Below the pieces are notes generated by a model, which made no database searches, was not told where the DNA came from, and worked only from the letters and a program-made list of their open reading frames with translations. Both the position numbers and the translations under genes were made by a program. Shown here piece after piece: positions 3,164 through 18,101 of a stretch of 64,000 bases of DNA; within the stretch, counting starts at the first letter, position 1, and each line of letters opens with the position of its first letter. Source of the DNA: Escherichia coli (lineage in GTDB: Bacteria; Pseudomonadota; Gammaproteobacteria; Enterobacterales; Enterobacteriaceae); NCBI RefSeq assembly GCF_003991155.1, contig NZ_CP031293.1. One strand, written 5' to 3'.

Positions 3164-5302
3164 ATGACACCGCATGTGATGAAACGAGACGGCTGCAAAG
3201 TGCCGTTTAAATCAGAGCGCATCAAAGAAGCGATTCTGCGTGCAGCTAAAGCAGCGGAAGTCGATGATGCCGATTATTGCGCCACTGTTGCTGCGGTTGT
3301 CAGCGAGCAGATGCAGGGCCGCAACCAGGTGGATATCAATGAGATCCAGACCGCAGTTGAAAACCAGCTGATGTCGGGGCCATACAAACAACTGGCTCGT
3401 GCCTACATCGAGTACCGTCACGATCGCGACATTGAACGTGAAAAACGCGGTCGCCTGAACCAGGAGATCCGTGGTCTGGTCGAGCAGACCAACTCCTCGT
3501 TACTCAACGAAAACGCCAACAAAGACAGCAAGGTGATTCCAACCCAGCGCGACCTGCTGGCCGGGATCGTGGCTAAACACTATGCACGCCAGCACCTGCT
3601 GCCGCGTGACGTGGTGCAGGCACATGAGCGTGGCGATATTCACTATCACGATCTCGATTACTCACCGTTCTTCCCGATGTTCAACTGCATGTTGATCGAC
3701 CTGAAAGGCATGCTGACCCAGGGCTTTAAAATGGGGAACGCCGAGATTGAACCGCCGAAGTCGATCTCTACGGCAACCGCGGTAACTGCGCAGATTATTG
3801 CTCAGGTCGCCAGCCATATTTATGGCGGCACCACCATTAACCGTATCGATGAAGTGCTGGCACCGTTTGTCACCGCCAGCTACAACAAACATCGCAAGAC
3901 CGCAGAAGAGTGGAACATCCCGGACGCCGAAGGCTACGCTAACTCTCGTACCATCAAAGAGTGCTACGATGCCTTCCAGTCGCTGGAGTACGAAGTAAAC
4001 ACCCTGCATACCGCCAACGGTCAAACGCCGTTTGTAACCTTTGGTTTTGGTCTGGGCACCAGCTGGGAATCGCGCCTGATTCAGGAATCGATCCTGCGTA
4101 ACCGTATCGCAGGCCTCGGTAAAAACCGTAAAACTGCGGTGTTCCCGAAACTGGTGTTTGCGATTCGCGATGGCCTGAACCATAAAAAAGGCGATCCGAA
4201 CTACGACATCAAACAGCTGGCGCTGGAGTGCGCAAGCAAGCGCATGTATCCGGATATCCTGAACTACGATCAGGTAGTGAAAGTCACCGGTTCGTTTAAA
4301 ACCCCGATGGGCTGCCGCAGCTTCCTCGGCGTGTGGGAAAATGAAAACGGCGAGCAGATCCACGATGGTCGTAACAACCTCGGCGTGATCAGCCTGAACC
4401 TGCCGCGTATTGCTCTGGAGGCAAAAGGCGATGAAGCCACCTTCTGGAAGCTGCTGGATGAACGTCTGGTGCTGGCACGTAAGGCGCTGATGACCCGTAT
4501 CGCTCGTCTCGAAGGCGTGAAAGCGCGCGTAGCCCCGATCCTCTATATGGAAGGTGCTTGTGGCGTGCGTCTGAATGCTGACGATGATGTTTCTGAAATC
4601 TTCAAAAACGGTCGTGCGTCTATTTCGCTGGGTTACATCGGCATCCACGAAACCATTAACGCGCTGTTTGGCGGCGAGCATGTGTATGACAACGAGCAGC
4701 TGCGCGCGAAAGGTATCGCCATTGTTGAACGTCTGCGTCAGGCGGTGGATCAGTGGAAAGAAGAAACGGGTTACGGTTTTAGCCTTTACAGCACGCCAAG
4801 TGAAAACCTGTGCGACCGCTTCTGCCGTCTCGATACCGCTGAGTTTGGCGTGGTGCCGGGCGTGACTGATAAAGGTTACTACACCAACAGTTTCCACCTC
4901 GATGTGGAGAAGAAGGTGAACCCGTACGACAAGATCGACTTTGAAGCGCCTTACCCGCCGCTGGCGAACGGTGGTTTCATTTGCTACGGCGAATATCCAA
5001 ACATTCAGCACAACCTGAAGGCGCTGGAAGATGTCTGGGATTACAGCTATCAGCATGTACCGTATTACGGCACCAATACGCCGATTGATGAGTGTTACGA
5101 GTGTGGTTTTACCGGTGAGTTTGAGTGCACCAGTAAAGGCTTCACCTGCCCGAAATGTGGTAACCATGACGCCTCCCGTGTGTCGGTGACTCGCCGCGTG
5201 TGCGGATATTTAGGTAGCCCGGATGCGCGTCCGTTTAACGCTGGTAAGCAGGAAGAAGTTAAGCGCCGCGTTAAACATTTGGGGAATGGGCAGATAGGTT
5301 AA
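3164..5302 (+). CDS. nrdD: Anaerobic ribonucleoside-triphosphate reductase (class III), 712 aa
   Basis: Translation MTPHVMKRDGCKVPFKSERIKEAI... matches NrdD; C-terminal glycyl-radical region and Cys-rich zinc site present. Confidence 0.97.
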   Translation: MTPHVMKRDGCKVPFKSERIKEAILRAAKAAEVDDADYCATVAAVVSEQMQGRNQVDINEIQTAVENQLMSGPYKQLARAYIEYRHDRDIEREKRGRLNQEIRGLVEQTNSSLLNENANKDSKVIPTQRDLLAGIVAKHYARQHLLPRDVVQAHERGDIHYHDLDYSPFFPMFNCMLIDLKGMLTQGFKMGNAEIEPPKSISTATAVTAQIIAQVASHIYGGTTINRIDEVLAPFVTASYNKHRKTAEEWNIPDAEGYANSRTIKECYDAFQSLEYEVNTLHTANGQTPFVTFGFGLGTSWESRLIQESILRNRIAGLGKNRKTAVFPKLVFAIRDGLNHKKGDPNYDIKQLALECASKRMYPDILNYDQVVKVTGSFKTPMGCRSFLGVWENENGEQIHDGRNNLGVISLNLPRIALEAKGDEATFWKLLDERLVLARKALMTRIARLEGVKARVAPILYMEGACGVRLNADDDVSEIFKNGRASISLGYIGIHETINALFGGEHVYDNEQLRAKGIAIVERLRQAVDQWKEETGYGFSLYSTPSENLCDRFCRLDTAEFGVVPGVTDKGYYTNSFHLDVEKKVNPYDKIDFEAPYPPLANGGFICYGEYPNIQHNLKALEDVWDYSYQHVPYYGTNTPIDECYECGFTGEFECTSKGFTCPKCGNHDASRVSVTRRVCGYLGSPDARPFNAGKQEEVKRRVKHLGNGQIG

Positions 5303-5321
5303 TCCTTCCCCCTCACCCTAA

Positions 5322-5343
5322 CCCTCTCCCTCAAGGGAGAGGG
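5322..5343. other. Perfect hairpin CCCTCTCCC-TCAA-GGGAGAGGG in nrdD-nrdG spacer
   Basis: Read directly; 9-bp stem, 4-nt loop, inside the 184-bp nrdD-nrdG intergenic region. Confidence 0.5.
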
Positions 5344-5486
5344 GACCGTTCCGTGCCCCTTCCTGATTCCCGACATAATGAATTGCCTCTGGCCAGTTTT
5401 TGTCGTCGCAAGGAGGCAAATGCGTAGCATCGGGGGACTTCGCCCGTACGCACCAGAGCATTCATGGCGTCAATTGAGAAGCGAAA

Positions 5487-5951
5487 ATGAACTTTCATCA
5501 GTACTATCCTGTCGACATCGTCAACGGCCCCGGCACTCGCTGCACCCTGTTTGTCTCCGGGTGTGTTCATGAATGCCCCGGTTGCTATAACAAAAGCACA
5601 TGGCGGGTAAATTCCGGTCAGCCATTTACCAAAGCAATGGAAGACCAGATCATTAACGATCTGAATGACACTCGTATCAAACGCCAGGGGATTTCCCTCT
5701 CCGGCGGCGATCCGCTGCATCCGCAAAACGTGCCGGATATTCTGAAACTGGTACAACGCATCCGCGCCGAGTGTCCGGGTAAAGACATCTGGGTGTGGAC
5801 AGGCTATAAACTCGACGAACTCAACGCTGCGCAAATGCAGGTTGTTGATTTGATTAACGTGCTGGTCGACGGCAAATTTATGCAGGATCTAAAAGACCCT
5901 TCCCTGATCTGGCGCGGCAGCAGCAATCAGGTGGTGCATCATTTACGTTAG
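5487..5951 (+). CDS. nrdG: Anaerobic ribonucleotide reductase activating protein (radical SAM), 154 aa
   Basis: Translation MNFHQYYPVDIVNGPGTRCTLFVSGCVHECPGCYN with Cys cluster; follows nrdD. Confidence 0.95.
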   Translation: MNFHQYYPVDIVNGPGTRCTLFVSGCVHECPGCYNKSTWRVNSGQPFTKAMEDQIINDLNDTRIKRQGISLSGGDPLHPQNVPDILKLVQRIRAECPGKDIWVWTGYKLDELNAAQMQVVDLINVLVDGKFMQDLKDPSLIWRGSSNQVVHHLR

Positions 5952-6242
5952 TCACTCATCCAGCCGTTTTGTCGCGTCTTCATAAACGGCTGAGTTTTCT
6001 CTCTTACCAATAGCTATCACCAACACGAGTAACTCTTTATCATTGACGGAATAGACCAGGCGATATCCCAGTGTGCGCAGCTTAATTTTGTAGCAGTCCG
6101 GTAAATCCCGCAGTTTAGCCGATGGATTGCGCGGCCTTTTCAGCACATCCTCAAGCTTTTTTTTAAATTGTTCCCGGACTGTCACGCCCAGTTTTTGCCA
6201 CTCTTTCAGCGCCCGCGGATCAAACGCCAGCTCATAGTTCAT
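5952..6242 (-). CDS. RelE/ParE-family type II toxin (mRNA interferase), about 96 aa
   Basis: Translation from MNYELAFDPRALKEWQKLG...LPDCYKIKLR..GYRLVY...GKRENSAVY closely parallels remembered K-12 RelE; start chosen by alignment to RelE (longer ORF start at 6320 rejected). Confidence 0.8.
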   Translation of the reverse strand: MNYELAFDPRALKEWQKLGVTVREQFKKKLEDVLKRPRNPSAKLRDLPDCYKIKLRTLGYRLVYSVNDKELLVLVIAIGKRENSAVYEDATKRLDE

Positions 6243-6474
6243 CCAGTCGGACCTTAATGGCCTCTTGTGGGTTGGCCAGTCGTTCCCTGACAGTGCGTAA
6301 CAAGGCTTCTTCACTATCACTGACAGTGAGCGTTTTTACCGGCATTCGTCCATTTTCCGCAACGTACTGAAACAGCAGCCGCACTGCTTCAGTAGGCGTA
6401 ATATTTAATTTTTCCAGCACCGCATAAGCCTCATTTTTCAGTTTGTCATCCAGGCGGACGTTAAGTGTGGCCAT
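6232..6474 (-). CDS. RelB/DinJ-family antitoxin (ribbon-helix-helix), 80 aa
   Basis: Translation MATLNVRLDDKLKNEAYAVLEKLNITPTEAVRLL...RLDEL parallels K-12 RelB; 3' end overlaps toxin start by 11 nt (typical coupling). Confidence 0.8.
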   Translation of the reverse strand: MATLNVRLDDKLKNEAYAVLEKLNITPTEAVRLLFQYVAENGRMPVKTLTVSDSEEALLRTVRERLANPQEAIKVRLDEL

Positions 6475-6497
6475 TATGCCTCCGGTAATTATGAAAA

Positions 6498-6533
6498 GTG
6501 TAATGCATTATAGCATTACATATGCATTACATT
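6498..6533. promoter_or_regulatory. Repeated palindromic motifs (TGTAATGCATTA / GCATTACA / TGCATTACATT) upstream of the antitoxin gene; candidate autoregulatory operator
   Basis: Read directly; TAATGCATTA is a perfect palindrome and TGCATTACA-like half-sites repeat three times. Confidence 0.5.
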
Positions 6534-6633
6534 CATTTCTGGAAAACGCCTCGCAAAAATGAGGACGACACGCAGGAATATGCCGTGGTGAAGATAGATA
6601 TTGCGGTGATTTTACGAAGGGAGAAGAAAGCGT

Positions 6634-6660
6634 TGGGCGGTAACGTTTCACCGCCCAATA
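6634..6660 (-). terminator. Stem-loop (GGGCGGT...ACCGCCC) downstream of cybC
   Basis: GC-rich inverted repeat just 3' of cybC stop on minus strand; weak U-tract. Confidence 0.4.
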
Positions 6661-6665
6661 AGGAA

Positions 6666-7055
<390 letters not shown>

Positions 7056-7107
7056 TCACTTCCTTTTTTATTATGAAGATTTGGCGCGGCAGGTCGCGCC
7101 AGTTTTT

Positions 7108-8460
7108 TTACTGCCCGGCGATTTTCATCTCCGACAACAGCACAGAACCACACTGTATATTACTGCGTGTTTCAATATCGTTACCGACGGTGACAATATT
7201 GCGCCACATATCTTTCAAATTACCTGCGATGGTGATTTCGCTCACCGGATACTGAATTTCGCCATTCTCTACCCAGAAGCCCGCCGCACCACGGGAATAA
7301 TCACCGGTAATGGCACTCACGCCCTGGCCCATCAGCTCCGTCACCACCAGCCCGGTGCCCATCTCTTTGAGCATTTGTTCGAAGCTTAGCCCTTGTCCGG
7401 CAATCCGCCAGTTGTGAATACCGCCCGCATGTCCGGTGCTTTTCAGCCCCAGTTTTCGCGCCGAATAGCTGGTCAGCAGCCACTGAGTCAGGATGCCATC
7501 TTTAATAATATCGCGACGCTCGGTGCGCACACCTTCGCTGTCGAATGGCGTCGACGCCAGCCCTTTCAGCAGATGCGGATGCTCTTCAATGGTCAGCCAG
7601 TCCGGCAGAATTTGTTTACCCAGCGAATCCAGCAGGAAGGTGGATTTACGGTAAACCGATCCACCCGCTATCGCCCCCACCAGATGGCCAAAAAGCCCGG
7701 TTGCCACTTCATTGGCAAAAATGACCGGCGCTTTCATGGTGGAGAGTTTACGCGGTGACAGACGCGATAAAGTGCGGCGAGCACAGTCGGCCCCGACCCA
7801 CTCTGGCGTTTGTAGATCGCTCATCGCACGACCAATGGTGTAGGCGTAATCACGCTCCATATCGCCATTTTCTTCGGCAATTACACAGCTGGAGAGCGAA
7901 TGACGCGTTGAGCAGTAACCCTGCAACATGCCGTGGCTGTTGCCAAAAACTTTGACACCGTAGTGGCTGTTAAAGCTGCCACCTTCTGTATTGGTGATGC
8001 GTTTATCCGCCTGCAATGCTGCCTGTTCAGCGCGGGCCGCCAGTTCAATGGCTTCATCCGGGGAAACTTCCGCAGGGTGGAACAAGTCGAGATCCGGTGC
8101 GTCAAAGGCCAGCAGCTCTTTGTCTGCCACGCCGGCACAGGGATCTGGCGAAGTGTAACGGGCAATATCCAGCGCCGCCTGTACGGTGCGGGCAATGGCC
8201 TGCGGGCTTAAATCGGTAGACGATGCGCTACCTTTACGGTTCTGGTGATAAACGGTGATCCCCAGCGCGCCATCGCTATTGAATTCAACATTCTCCACTT
8301 CACCATAACGCGTGCTTACGCTAATGCCGGTGGTCTTGCTGACGGCAACTTCTGCACCGTCCGATTTGCCTGAGGCCAACTCCAGCGCAGTCGAAACTGC
8401 TTCTTCCAGAATCTTGCGCTGCGCTTCAACTTGAGAGATTACTTTCATTGCAAGTGCCAT
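7108..8460 (-). CDS. pmbA: Metalloprotease PmbA/TldE (450 aa)
   Basis: Translation [22 protein letters not shown]... matches PmbA; position between cybC and yjgA. Confidence 0.95.
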
Positions 8461-17294: not shown

Positions 17295-17645
17295 TTATTC
17301 CACCACCGCCTGCAAACGTAATAACGCCTCTTCCACCACCTCACCCGCAGCCAGACCAATACGCTTTGCCAGTCGGGCGCGTAAATCCATCATCCGCACC
17401 TGATTCACCAGCACCACGCCGTGCACATCGCCTTCTTCGCAATGTAAAGGAACGCTAAATCCGGCATAACGGGCAAAATTTCCGCCCTGCGTAATGGGGG
17501 CCACCAGCGTCATTCCCAGTTGATTAAAGGCTTGAACGGAGAGCACAAGCGCAGGTCGACCAGCACCTTGCTGTTCATGGCCGCTTGCTGGATCAAAGCC
17601 AACCAGCACAATGTCTCCCCGTTCAAATTCACTTTTCTTTACCAT
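17295..17645 (-). CDS. chpB: MazF-family toxin endoribonuclease ChpB (116 aa)
   Basis: Translation MVKKSEFERGDIVLVGFDPASGHEQQGAGRPALVLS... Confidence 0.93.
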   Translation of the reverse strand: MVKKSEFERGDIVLVGFDPASGHEQQGAGRPALVLSVQAFNQLGMTLVAPITQGGNFARYAGFSVPLHCEEGDVHGVVLVNQVRMMDLRARLAKRIGLAAGEVVEEALLRLQAVVE

Positions 17646-17890
17646 ATTTCGTCACCCGCAGGGGTGGATTTACCCCAGACATCCTGCTCGCTAAGTTCCG
17701 TGGCGTTCATGTCACACTGTGCCAGCAGTTCATCAAGCGAGTAGCGCCTGGAGATGGGTGTCAGAATCAGTTGATTGTTGCTCACTTGCGCCTCCACGCT
17801 CTGCCCCGGCCGTAAGTTAAGTTCTTTCATCACAACATTAGGAATGACCATACCTGAACTGTTCCCCCATCTTTTTATGGTAATACGCAT
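17639..17890 (-). CDS. chpS: Antitoxin ChpS (83 aa, AbrB/MazE fold)
   Basis: Translation MRITIKRWGNSSGMVIPNVVMKELNL...; overlaps chpB start. Confidence 0.9.
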   Translation of the reverse strand: MRITIKRWGNSSGMVIPNVVMKELNLRPGQSVEAQVSNNQLILTPISRRYSLDELLAQCDMNATELSEQDVWGKSTPAGDEIW

Positions 17891-18101
17891 CTGCACCTCC
17901 TTAAGTTATACAAAGTATAACTCACGGTGCTACAGGAAACGTTTTACCCCTGCGCATTTGTGAACGCCAGCAGAGTTTTTTATGCGTTAACAGATATGGA
18001 AAGCGGCTCGGAGAGAAAAGCAAAAGGTGAGGGAATTACAAAACAGAATGCGAGTCGTCTCGCAAAAAACAACGCCACCCGAAGGTGGCGTATGCGTATG
18101 G

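Follow-up and report, generated by a model that had tools for sequence, protein, structure and literature searches.

The closest described counterpart of the locus reported here is the chromosomal RelBE pair of Salmonella enterica serovar Typhimurium, in which STM4449 encodes the antitoxin and STM4450 the toxin. Silva-Herzog et al. reported that induction of Salmonella relE (STM4450) arrests or delays growth and that co-expression of relB relieves this effect; relE induction also raises ciprofloxacin tolerance, and the gene is induced about five-fold in macrophages (PMC4669091). The tags STM4449-STM4452 of strain LT2 fit the gene order relB, relE, nrdG, nrdD, with nrdD as STM4452; one listing of STM4449/4450 comes from a retracted paper (PMC3868539), which we took for its locus tags only. 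The second described system is the RelBE pair of Escherichia coli K-12 (b1564/b1563), a paralogue that resides at another locus, in the cryptic prophage Qin, with hokD (relF) as its neighbor. Here, we describe a relBE pair that abuts nrdG in a 64-kb window, the whole stretch of 64,000 nucleotides of E. coli DNA that was analysed.

The window pair has the antitoxin-first bicistronic order, with relB upstream of relE on the same strand and both frames full length; all features are collected in Table 1. The preliminary description had put the antitoxin at about 80 and the toxin at about 96 amino acids, and the open reading frames found at that place have exactly these lengths. An overlap of 11 nt (ATGAACTATGA) joins the two genes. 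While the program-made list of open reading frames carries the toxin frame out to a GTG at 6320, the homologues favor the ATG at 6242, a start that agrees with every one of them. At its other end, relE converges on nrdG, and the two stop codons touch with a spacer of zero, as had been noted before. The pair is already named in RefSeq, in a genome that is identical over the locus, as WP_001105432.1 (RelE family toxin) and WP_000212715.1 (RelB/DinJ antitoxin). The earlier suggestion that this is a second relBE-type module was not confirmed: a tblastn search of the 64-kb window gave no other RelE or RelB relative, and the one further toxin-antitoxin pair there, chpS/chpB, is of the MazEF type. 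An Rfam search of positions 5300-7200, with E values up to 1, matched no RNA family. The PADLOC defence models returned a marginal RelE-domain match alone (E = 0.005), with no sign of a known defence system.

Table 1. Features of the relBE locus and its flanks, in positions of the 64-kb window
Feature	Position	Strand	Remarks
nrdG	5487-5951	+	TAG stop at 5949-5951
relE-like toxin gene, 96 aa	5952..6242	-	Predicted ribosome-dependent mRNA endonuclease; stop at 5952-5954 (TCA on +)
relB-like antitoxin gene, 80 aa	6232..6474	-	N-terminal ribbon-helix-helix and C-terminal RelE-binding helix
Shine-Dalgarno GGAGG	6479..6483	-	4 nt before the relB ATG
Predicted extended -10, TGCTATAAT	6507..6515	-	Perfect TATAAT at 6512..6507 with TGn extension; read by eye
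Putative operator, three TGTAATGC units	6499..6531	-	Repeat calls I1, I3, D1 and D2
TCATCCAG, one of two 8-bp direct repeats	5956..5963		Partner at 6239-6246; from alignment with O145 RM9872, E400634 and MSB1_4I
Hairpin with T-rich tail inside relE codons 78-94	5961..6005	+	nrdG-sense; arms 5961-5969 and 5984-5992; tail 5993-6005
A8 homopolymer run in relE, codons F26-K29	6157..6164	-	Recurrent frameshift site in relatives
Hairpin TTGGGCGGTGAAACGTTACCGCCCAA then CGCTTTCTTC	6633..6658	-	Terminator-like site; MFE -18.0 kcal/mol, z = -4.4
Segment present here, replaced in K-12 and most E. coli	5948..6660		From alignment with four empty-site genomes and the MG1655 annotation

Comparison with the K-12 reference proteins (from NC_000913) placed both gene products in the RelBE family. 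The toxin is 64% identical to K-12 RelE in an ungapped alignment over 94 of its 96 residues, and for the antitoxin and K-12 RelB, identity is 48% along the full length. Among solved structures, the toxin matched ribosome-bound RelE (4V7K/4V7J) and 4FXE best, with E values of about 1e-33 to 1e-34, and the antitoxin matched chain A of 4FXE, the RelB2E2 complex, over its full length (E = 1.2e-20). The antitoxin scored 130 bits with the NCBIfam RelB equivalog NF008412 (cut-off 96) and 73.8 bits with TIGR02384 (cut-off 45.7); the toxin passed TIGR02385 (RelE_StbE) barely, at 28.0 bits over a cut-off of 27.9. In Pfam, the antitoxin matched PF04221 (RelB; E = 6.5e-16) and the toxin PF05016 (E = 3e-14), a model that is titled ParE toxin, yet spans the entire RelE/ParE superfamily.

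The gyrase-targeting ParDE family was considered in turn. The pair resembles ParE/ParD in that PF05016 (ParE_toxin) is the best Pfam model for the toxin and in that the antitoxin is a ribbon-helix-helix protein; it differs in the 64% identity of its toxin to the ribosome-dependent RelE, the catalytic residues of which are kept. We rejected this assignment: the closest solved relatives are all RelE, and the RelB_ParD model, with its cut-off at 60 bits, gave 30.2.

The catalytic residues of RelE are reportedly Lys52, Lys54, Arg61, Arg81 and Tyr87, an assignment said to go back to Neubauer et al. in 2009. All five are identical between the window toxin and K-12 RelE in the ungapped alignment, and they are also kept in 10 syntenic orthologues. 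The stretch GKRENSAVY, in which the preliminary description had seen conservation of the RelE catalytic region, spans toxin residues 79-87 and lies without a gap opposite GKRERSEVY of K-12, with R81 and Y87 retained. Tyr87 is described as a catalytic residue of RelE in a report that also names L58, V62 and R65 of RelB as RelE contacts (PMC3507626); aligned with K-12 RelB, the window antitoxin retains all three. Judged by these alignments together with the profile and structure matches, the window pair is a member of the RelBE type II toxin-antitoxin family, as its earlier description as a RelB/RelE-type pair had it.

Upstream of relB, three copies of TGTAATGC lie within 33 bp, at 6499-6506 (+), 6513-6520 (-) and 6524-6531 (-); the 64-kb window holds five copies in total, where ~2.5 are expected, and three of the five are in this putative operator. 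The two inner units are inverted relative to each other and enclose the -10 hexamer; the two that share an orientation are spaced by 11 bp, one helical turn. On the coding strand, the order upstream of relB reads GAA TGTAATGC ATA TGTAATGC TATAAT GCATTACA C...GGAGG CATA ATG. The -35 ahead of relB is weak, and because of this poor -35 a sigma-70 consensus scan upstream of relB called no promoter. We aligned this region across 12 nrdG-linked loci drawn from Escherichia, Salmonella, Klebsiella, Citrobacter, Enterobacter and Kosakonia. The three TGTAATGC units and the position of the -10 are invariant or nearly so, and the flanking DNA diverges; the -10 itself reads TATAAT, TATATT or TAAACT in the orthologues, and the ribosome-binding region GGAGGCATAATG is invariant in 11 of the 12 loci. 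The units share a TGTAAT core with the K-12 operator relO (TTGTAATGACATTTGTAATTACAA). This is good comparative evidence for a putative protein-binding operator that overlaps the predicted promoter, and it gives substance to the operator-like repeat array that had been pointed out upstream of the pair.

By analogy with the K-12 paradigm, relB and relE would be co-transcribed from the extended -10 promoter, and RelB dimers, aided by RelE, would repress the operon by binding to the three TGTAATGC sites on either side of the -10. The C-terminal helix of RelB would wrap around RelE and displace the helix that bears Tyr87. Upon degradation of the labile RelB, free RelE would act in the ribosomal A site, with mRNA being cleaved and translation halted. 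It is from this analogy that we infer toxin-antitoxin activity, autoregulation and antitoxin lability for the window strain. Stabilisation of the region and persistence, the roles put forward in the preliminary description, would be possible consequences.

The distribution of the pair within the species is patchy. The nrdG-cybC interval was found in 5425 of 5426 complete E. coli genomes; the pair-bearing segment is present in 454 of the 5426 and relE in 393, and about 61 further genomes carry relB without relE, such that the intact pair is retained in ~7% of E. coli. In K-12 MG1655, 44 bp separate the cybC' pseudogene from nrdG with no gene inside, and a 44-bp spacer without the pair is found in O157 and B2 strains as well; the preliminary description had expected no gene between nrdG and cybC in K-12 and had taken the locus to be probably strain-variable, and it was right on both counts. 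In the empty state, positions ~5948-6660 are replaced by ~42 bp that contain a different hairpin, CCCTGTT...AACAGGG (-22.5 kcal/mol); in the long allele, the segment itself provides the nrdG stop codon. The hairpin at the cybC side of the segment, which lies within the part absent from K-12, is likely the cybC terminator.

Beyond the species, a scan of one genome per species returned 491 RelE relatives, and we inspected the loci of the best 80. Among these best 80 of 491, all loci that encode nrdG show relB-relE convergent on nrdG-nrdD, with the stops 0-10 nt apart; they belong to Citrobacter amalonaticus, four Enterobacter, three Kosakonia, one metagenome-assembled genome (MAG), E. albertii and a divergent E. 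coli. Look-ups of RelB homologues added Klebsiella huaxiensis and Salmonella enterica, the latter with over 2000 blocks of the collection; at least 6 genera share the convergent relBE/nrdG junction. The order seen in the window, pmbA-cybC-relB-relE-nrdG, recurs in E. albertii and E. marmotae, with relE frameshifted. In neighbor-joining (NJ) trees of 82 RelE and 58 RelB sequences, all 12 nrdG-linked sequences form one clade without outsiders, and this is true of both proteins. The window proteins are 80-91% (RelB), 87-93% (NrdG) and 60-72% (RelE) identical to their syntenic orthologues; identity to non-syntenic relatives is about 45-58% for RelB and 63-66% for RelE.

The word "inserted", used of the pair when it was first noticed, could be taken to mean recent horizontal transfer, with the lineage of this strain receiving a mobile relBE cassette at the nrdG-cybC site. 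Toxin-antitoxin modules are often mobile, only 393-454 of the 5426 E. coli genomes carry the pair, the spacer of K-12, O157 and B2 strains is clean, and E. coli RelE is scarcely closer to its syntenic orthologues than to non-syntenic RelE. RelB, however, is far closer to its syntenic orthologues than to other RelB proteins, both proteins are monophyletic for the nrdG-linked loci, and the site is occupied in sister species and other genera, with the nrdG junction shared by at least six genera and the cybC context kept in E. albertii and E. marmotae. Nor do the boundaries of the segment look like those of a genomic islet or mobile element: we examined them for an IS element, an integrase, a tRNA and a target-site duplication, and found none. 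In plasmid and phage collections, searched by distant blastn, there was no true plasmid or phage copy of the nrdG-linked lineage; full-length matches in these sets are mislabelled chromosomes, or chromosomal fragments with a PRD neighbor, and the genuine plasmid relBE genes are distant paralogues with 60-80% identity over part of the query. A mobile insertion was rejected on these grounds, and we give very little credence to a recent arrival, a reading that synteny has largely refuted.

The synteny comparison of nrdG-cybC, run in other strains and genera, thus came out against insertion and in favor of loss in most E. coli. Read most simply, these data make the pair an old resident at the 3' end of nrdDG in the Enterobacteriaceae, probably lost or decayed in most Escherichia. 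The pair appears to be ancestral because the junction is shared, the sequences form a clade of their own, the operator is near-invariant and no true plasmid or phage copy was found; the case for ancestry rests on synteny and the NJ trees. In K-12 and the remaining E. coli, it would seem that either the pair was deleted, leaving the short hairpin spacer, or the toxin was inactivated. Homologous recombination within E. coli may have spread either of the two relE alleles described below.

How the module has decayed can be read from the surviving copies. The A8 run in relE is intact in the window and frameshifted in E. coli SCPM-O-B-9504, E. albertii and E. marmotae, and the first two of these copies have lost most of relB as well. 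In the orphan-relB genomes, relE is deleted between the two TCATCCAG repeats, which leaves a 79-aa RelB that again adjoins nrdG; this deletion is found in ~61 genomes, with O145 Shiga-toxin-producing (STEC) strains among them. An IS100 element sits inside relE in an O158:H23 strain, and strain E69 has a C-terminal relE frameshift with loss of Tyr87. As these alignments have it, there are several toxin-inactivating events at the locus that are independent of each other. The antitoxin outlives the toxin, as is expected of a decaying module. The repeated inactivation of relE in Escherichia implies weak or intermittent selection on the toxin within the genus.

Where relE is intact, its variation points the other way. 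Of the 10 nucleotide differences between the main two E. coli alleles, 8 are synonymous, and two amino acids are changed: the window allele encodes L58 and S65, and the commoner E. coli allele Q58 and Q65, with position 65 being Q in all orthologues compared. Across genera, pN against pS is 0.10 against 0.61 for relB and 0.18 against 0.73 for relE; we give these values without dN/dS ratios because synonymous sites are saturated between genera in all genes (pS 0.5-0.8), and the Kosakonia nrdD values, which are misaligned, were excluded. By this substitution pattern, relE is constrained where it is intact.

These observations bear on whether the window copy is a decaying relic, in which the reading frames survive by chance and function or selection has ceased, in this strain, for the toxin or for the entire module. 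The multiple independent inactivations of relE in Escherichia, the ~61 orphan-relB genomes, the loss of the whole locus from most E. coli and the two unusual substitutions of the window allele, L58 and S65, would all be in keeping with such a fate. Yet the window has full-length reading frames, all of the catalytic residues and an intact gene overlap and ribosome-binding site; most of the differences between the two main alleles are synonymous, pN is far under pS between genera, and the operator is perfectly conserved. We regard it as unlikely that the window pair is a relic.

Reading relE on the opposite strand uncovered a second conserved element. The antisense of relE codons 83-94 is a hairpin, CAGCCGTTT-N14-AAACGGCTG (5961-5992), with an MFE of -13.2 kcal/mol and z = -2.0, and directly 3' of it lies AGTTTTCTCTCTT, which reads antisense to the GKRE(N/K) codons. 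All 12 nrdG-linked loci have both the hairpin and the T-run. Across these 12 taxa, 79.5% of cells are paired, compared with 24-57% after sliding of the partner columns; four hairpin pairs have changed on both sides, among them a U-A to C-G change in Kosakonia, in which a Val-to-Ala replacement is matched by a synonymous change of a Lys codon. The hairpin energy has a median of -15.6 kcal/mol in nrdG-linked relE and of -5.3 kcal/mol in 69 other relE homologues (Mann-Whitney p = 9e-8, for 12 linked loci that are mutually related, so that the hairpin statistics are not independent). The tail is less T-rich in the 69 non-linked homologues as well, and by this comparison the hairpin with its T-run is specific to nrdG-linked relE genes. 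Since the stops of nrdG and relE are 0-10 nt apart, there is no room for a terminator in between. That the hairpin embedded in relE serves as the intrinsic nrdDG terminator is plausible, and we put it forward as a tentative and rather doubtful assignment. The embedded hairpin itself is a modestly new side observation; our search of the literature found no work that links relBE with nrdG, nrdDG or cybC, or that treats the E. coli copy.

One could go further and suppose that the locus is kept mainly for a role in cis, as the nrdDG terminator or through coupling of relBE with nrdDG, with toxin-antitoxin activity secondary or hitch-hiking. The conserved nrdG-sense hairpin and T-run within relE, with their compensatory changes and their restriction to nrdG-linked genes, would agree with this, as would the lack of space for another terminator between the stops in all genera and the strong hairpin that the empty allele has of its own. 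Against it stand the relatedness of the 12 linked loci, which makes the statistics non-independent, and the orphan-relB genomes, in which the hairpin is gone with no obvious replacement; moreover, a terminator leaves the purifying selection on relB and on the rest of relE unexplained. Retention mainly in cis is, in our estimate, quite improbable.

Were the terminator assignment true, it would nonetheless have consequences for the locus. The shared face-to-face end would have locked relBE to nrdG across the Enterobacteriaceae, strong anaerobic transcription of nrdDG could modulate relBE via collision or antisense read-through, and K-12-type E. coli would have needed a replacement hairpin in order to lose relBE. 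It would give a concrete reason why a toxin-antitoxin pair has stayed beside a housekeeping operon for so long and would help to explain the hairpin of the empty allele.

Taken together, the gene structure, homology, catalytic residues, conserved operator sequence, distribution and synteny observed here describe what is, with high probability, an intact chromosomal RelBE-family type II operon that is orthologous to STM4449/STM4450, an old resident at the nrdDG end that most E. coli have lost. On its own, one more chromosomal RelBE module is of little weight. The reading of the locus is corrected to a loss in K-12, not a gain in the window strain, and the locus offers a natural decay series at a single site: intact pair, orphan antitoxin, frameshifted toxin, IS-disrupted toxin and clean deletion. 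Such a series is good material for the study of how chromosomal toxin-antitoxin modules die.

Set beside the two described systems, the window pair shares with K-12 RelBE the family and the architecture, with protein lengths that are equal give or take one residue, conserved catalytic and RelB contact residues, and TGTAAT hexads that overlap the promoter, a predicted one in the window. It differs from K-12 in its putative operator, which has three 8-nt units with the -10 between the inverted pair, and in its setting, which is outside a prophage, without a hok gene and next to nrdG. With only 48% identity between the two RelB proteins, cross-neutralisation is not to be assumed.

The correspondence with Salmonella RelBE (STM4449/STM4450) is much closer. 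That pair has the same position and orientation, convergent on nrdG-nrdD, with a stop-to-stop distance of 3 nt as against 0 nt in the window; its RelB is 84% and its RelE 68% identical to the window proteins, RelE being the more diverged of the two, and the RelE and RelB trees each place the two pairs in the same clade. It also has the same three TGTAATGC units and the same ribosome-binding site, whereas the -10 is TAAACT in Salmonella and TATAAT in the window. On the left side, Escherichia has cybC and Salmonella a PRD/Mga/EIIA regulator, and E. coli RelE has two extra C-terminal residues (DE) that Salmonella RelE lacks. By position and phylogeny, the window pair is the E. coli orthologue of Salmonella STM4449/STM4450; the system is one already known and annotated, an ordinary chromosomal RelBE module whose Salmonella orthologue has been studied.

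The RelE toxin gene adjoining nrdG has been inactivated in Escherichia by more than one route. Approximately 61 complete E. coli genomes retain an orphan relB, as in the O145 strain RM9872, E400634, and MSB1_4I. Their toxin gene was removed by a deletion whose end-points are 8-bp direct repeats of TCATCCAG; the product of this deletion is a 79-aa RelB antitoxin, the stop codon of which again adjoins nrdG. A run of eight adenines within relE is frameshifted in E. albertii, in E. marmotae, and in one E. coli genome (SCPM-O-B-9504), and the run appears to be a site at which the toxin is repeatedly inactivated. In E. coli O158:H23 CFIAFB20140388, relE is cut short by an IS100 (istA/istB) insertion that leaves relB intact.

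Across genera, RelB is 80–91% identical to its counterpart in the window, versus 60–72% for the cognate RelE (loci L012–L015, L092, and L094). That the antitoxin is much more conserved than its toxin reverses the usual pattern for toxin-antitoxin pairs.

The 3′ part of relE also harbors a hairpin followed by a T-run that reads in the nrdG sense; the element is conserved and specific to nrdG-linked relE genes. It is a candidate nrdDG terminator, which would be embedded in the convergent toxin gene.

Features of the relB-relE locus and its surroundings (window coordinates)
Feature	Position	Strand	Remarks
nrdD-nrdG spacer	5303-5486		184 nt
8-bp direct repeats TCATCCAG	5956-5963 and 6239-6246		end-points of relE deletion
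Hairpin + T-run	5961-6005	+ (nrdG-sense)	within relE codons 78-94, directly after nrdG stop
A8 homopolymer run	6157-6164		in relE, codons FKKK
cybC (cytochrome b562)	6666-7052	-	intact, 128 aa
chpS/chpB	17295-17896	-	MazEF-type toxin-antitoxin pair; matches NCBIfam equivalogs at 193 and 227 bits

The sole further toxin-antitoxin pair found in the window, chpS/chpB, is not of the relBE type. Upstream of nrdG, the nrdD-nrdG spacer varies in length from strain to strain, and in the window it begins with a repeat-like inverted element, CCCTCTCCCTCAAGGGAGAGGG. Relative to K-12, in which the spacer measures 157 nt, that of the window is longer, and cybC, which the K-12 MG1655 annotation lists as a pseudogene, is here intact.
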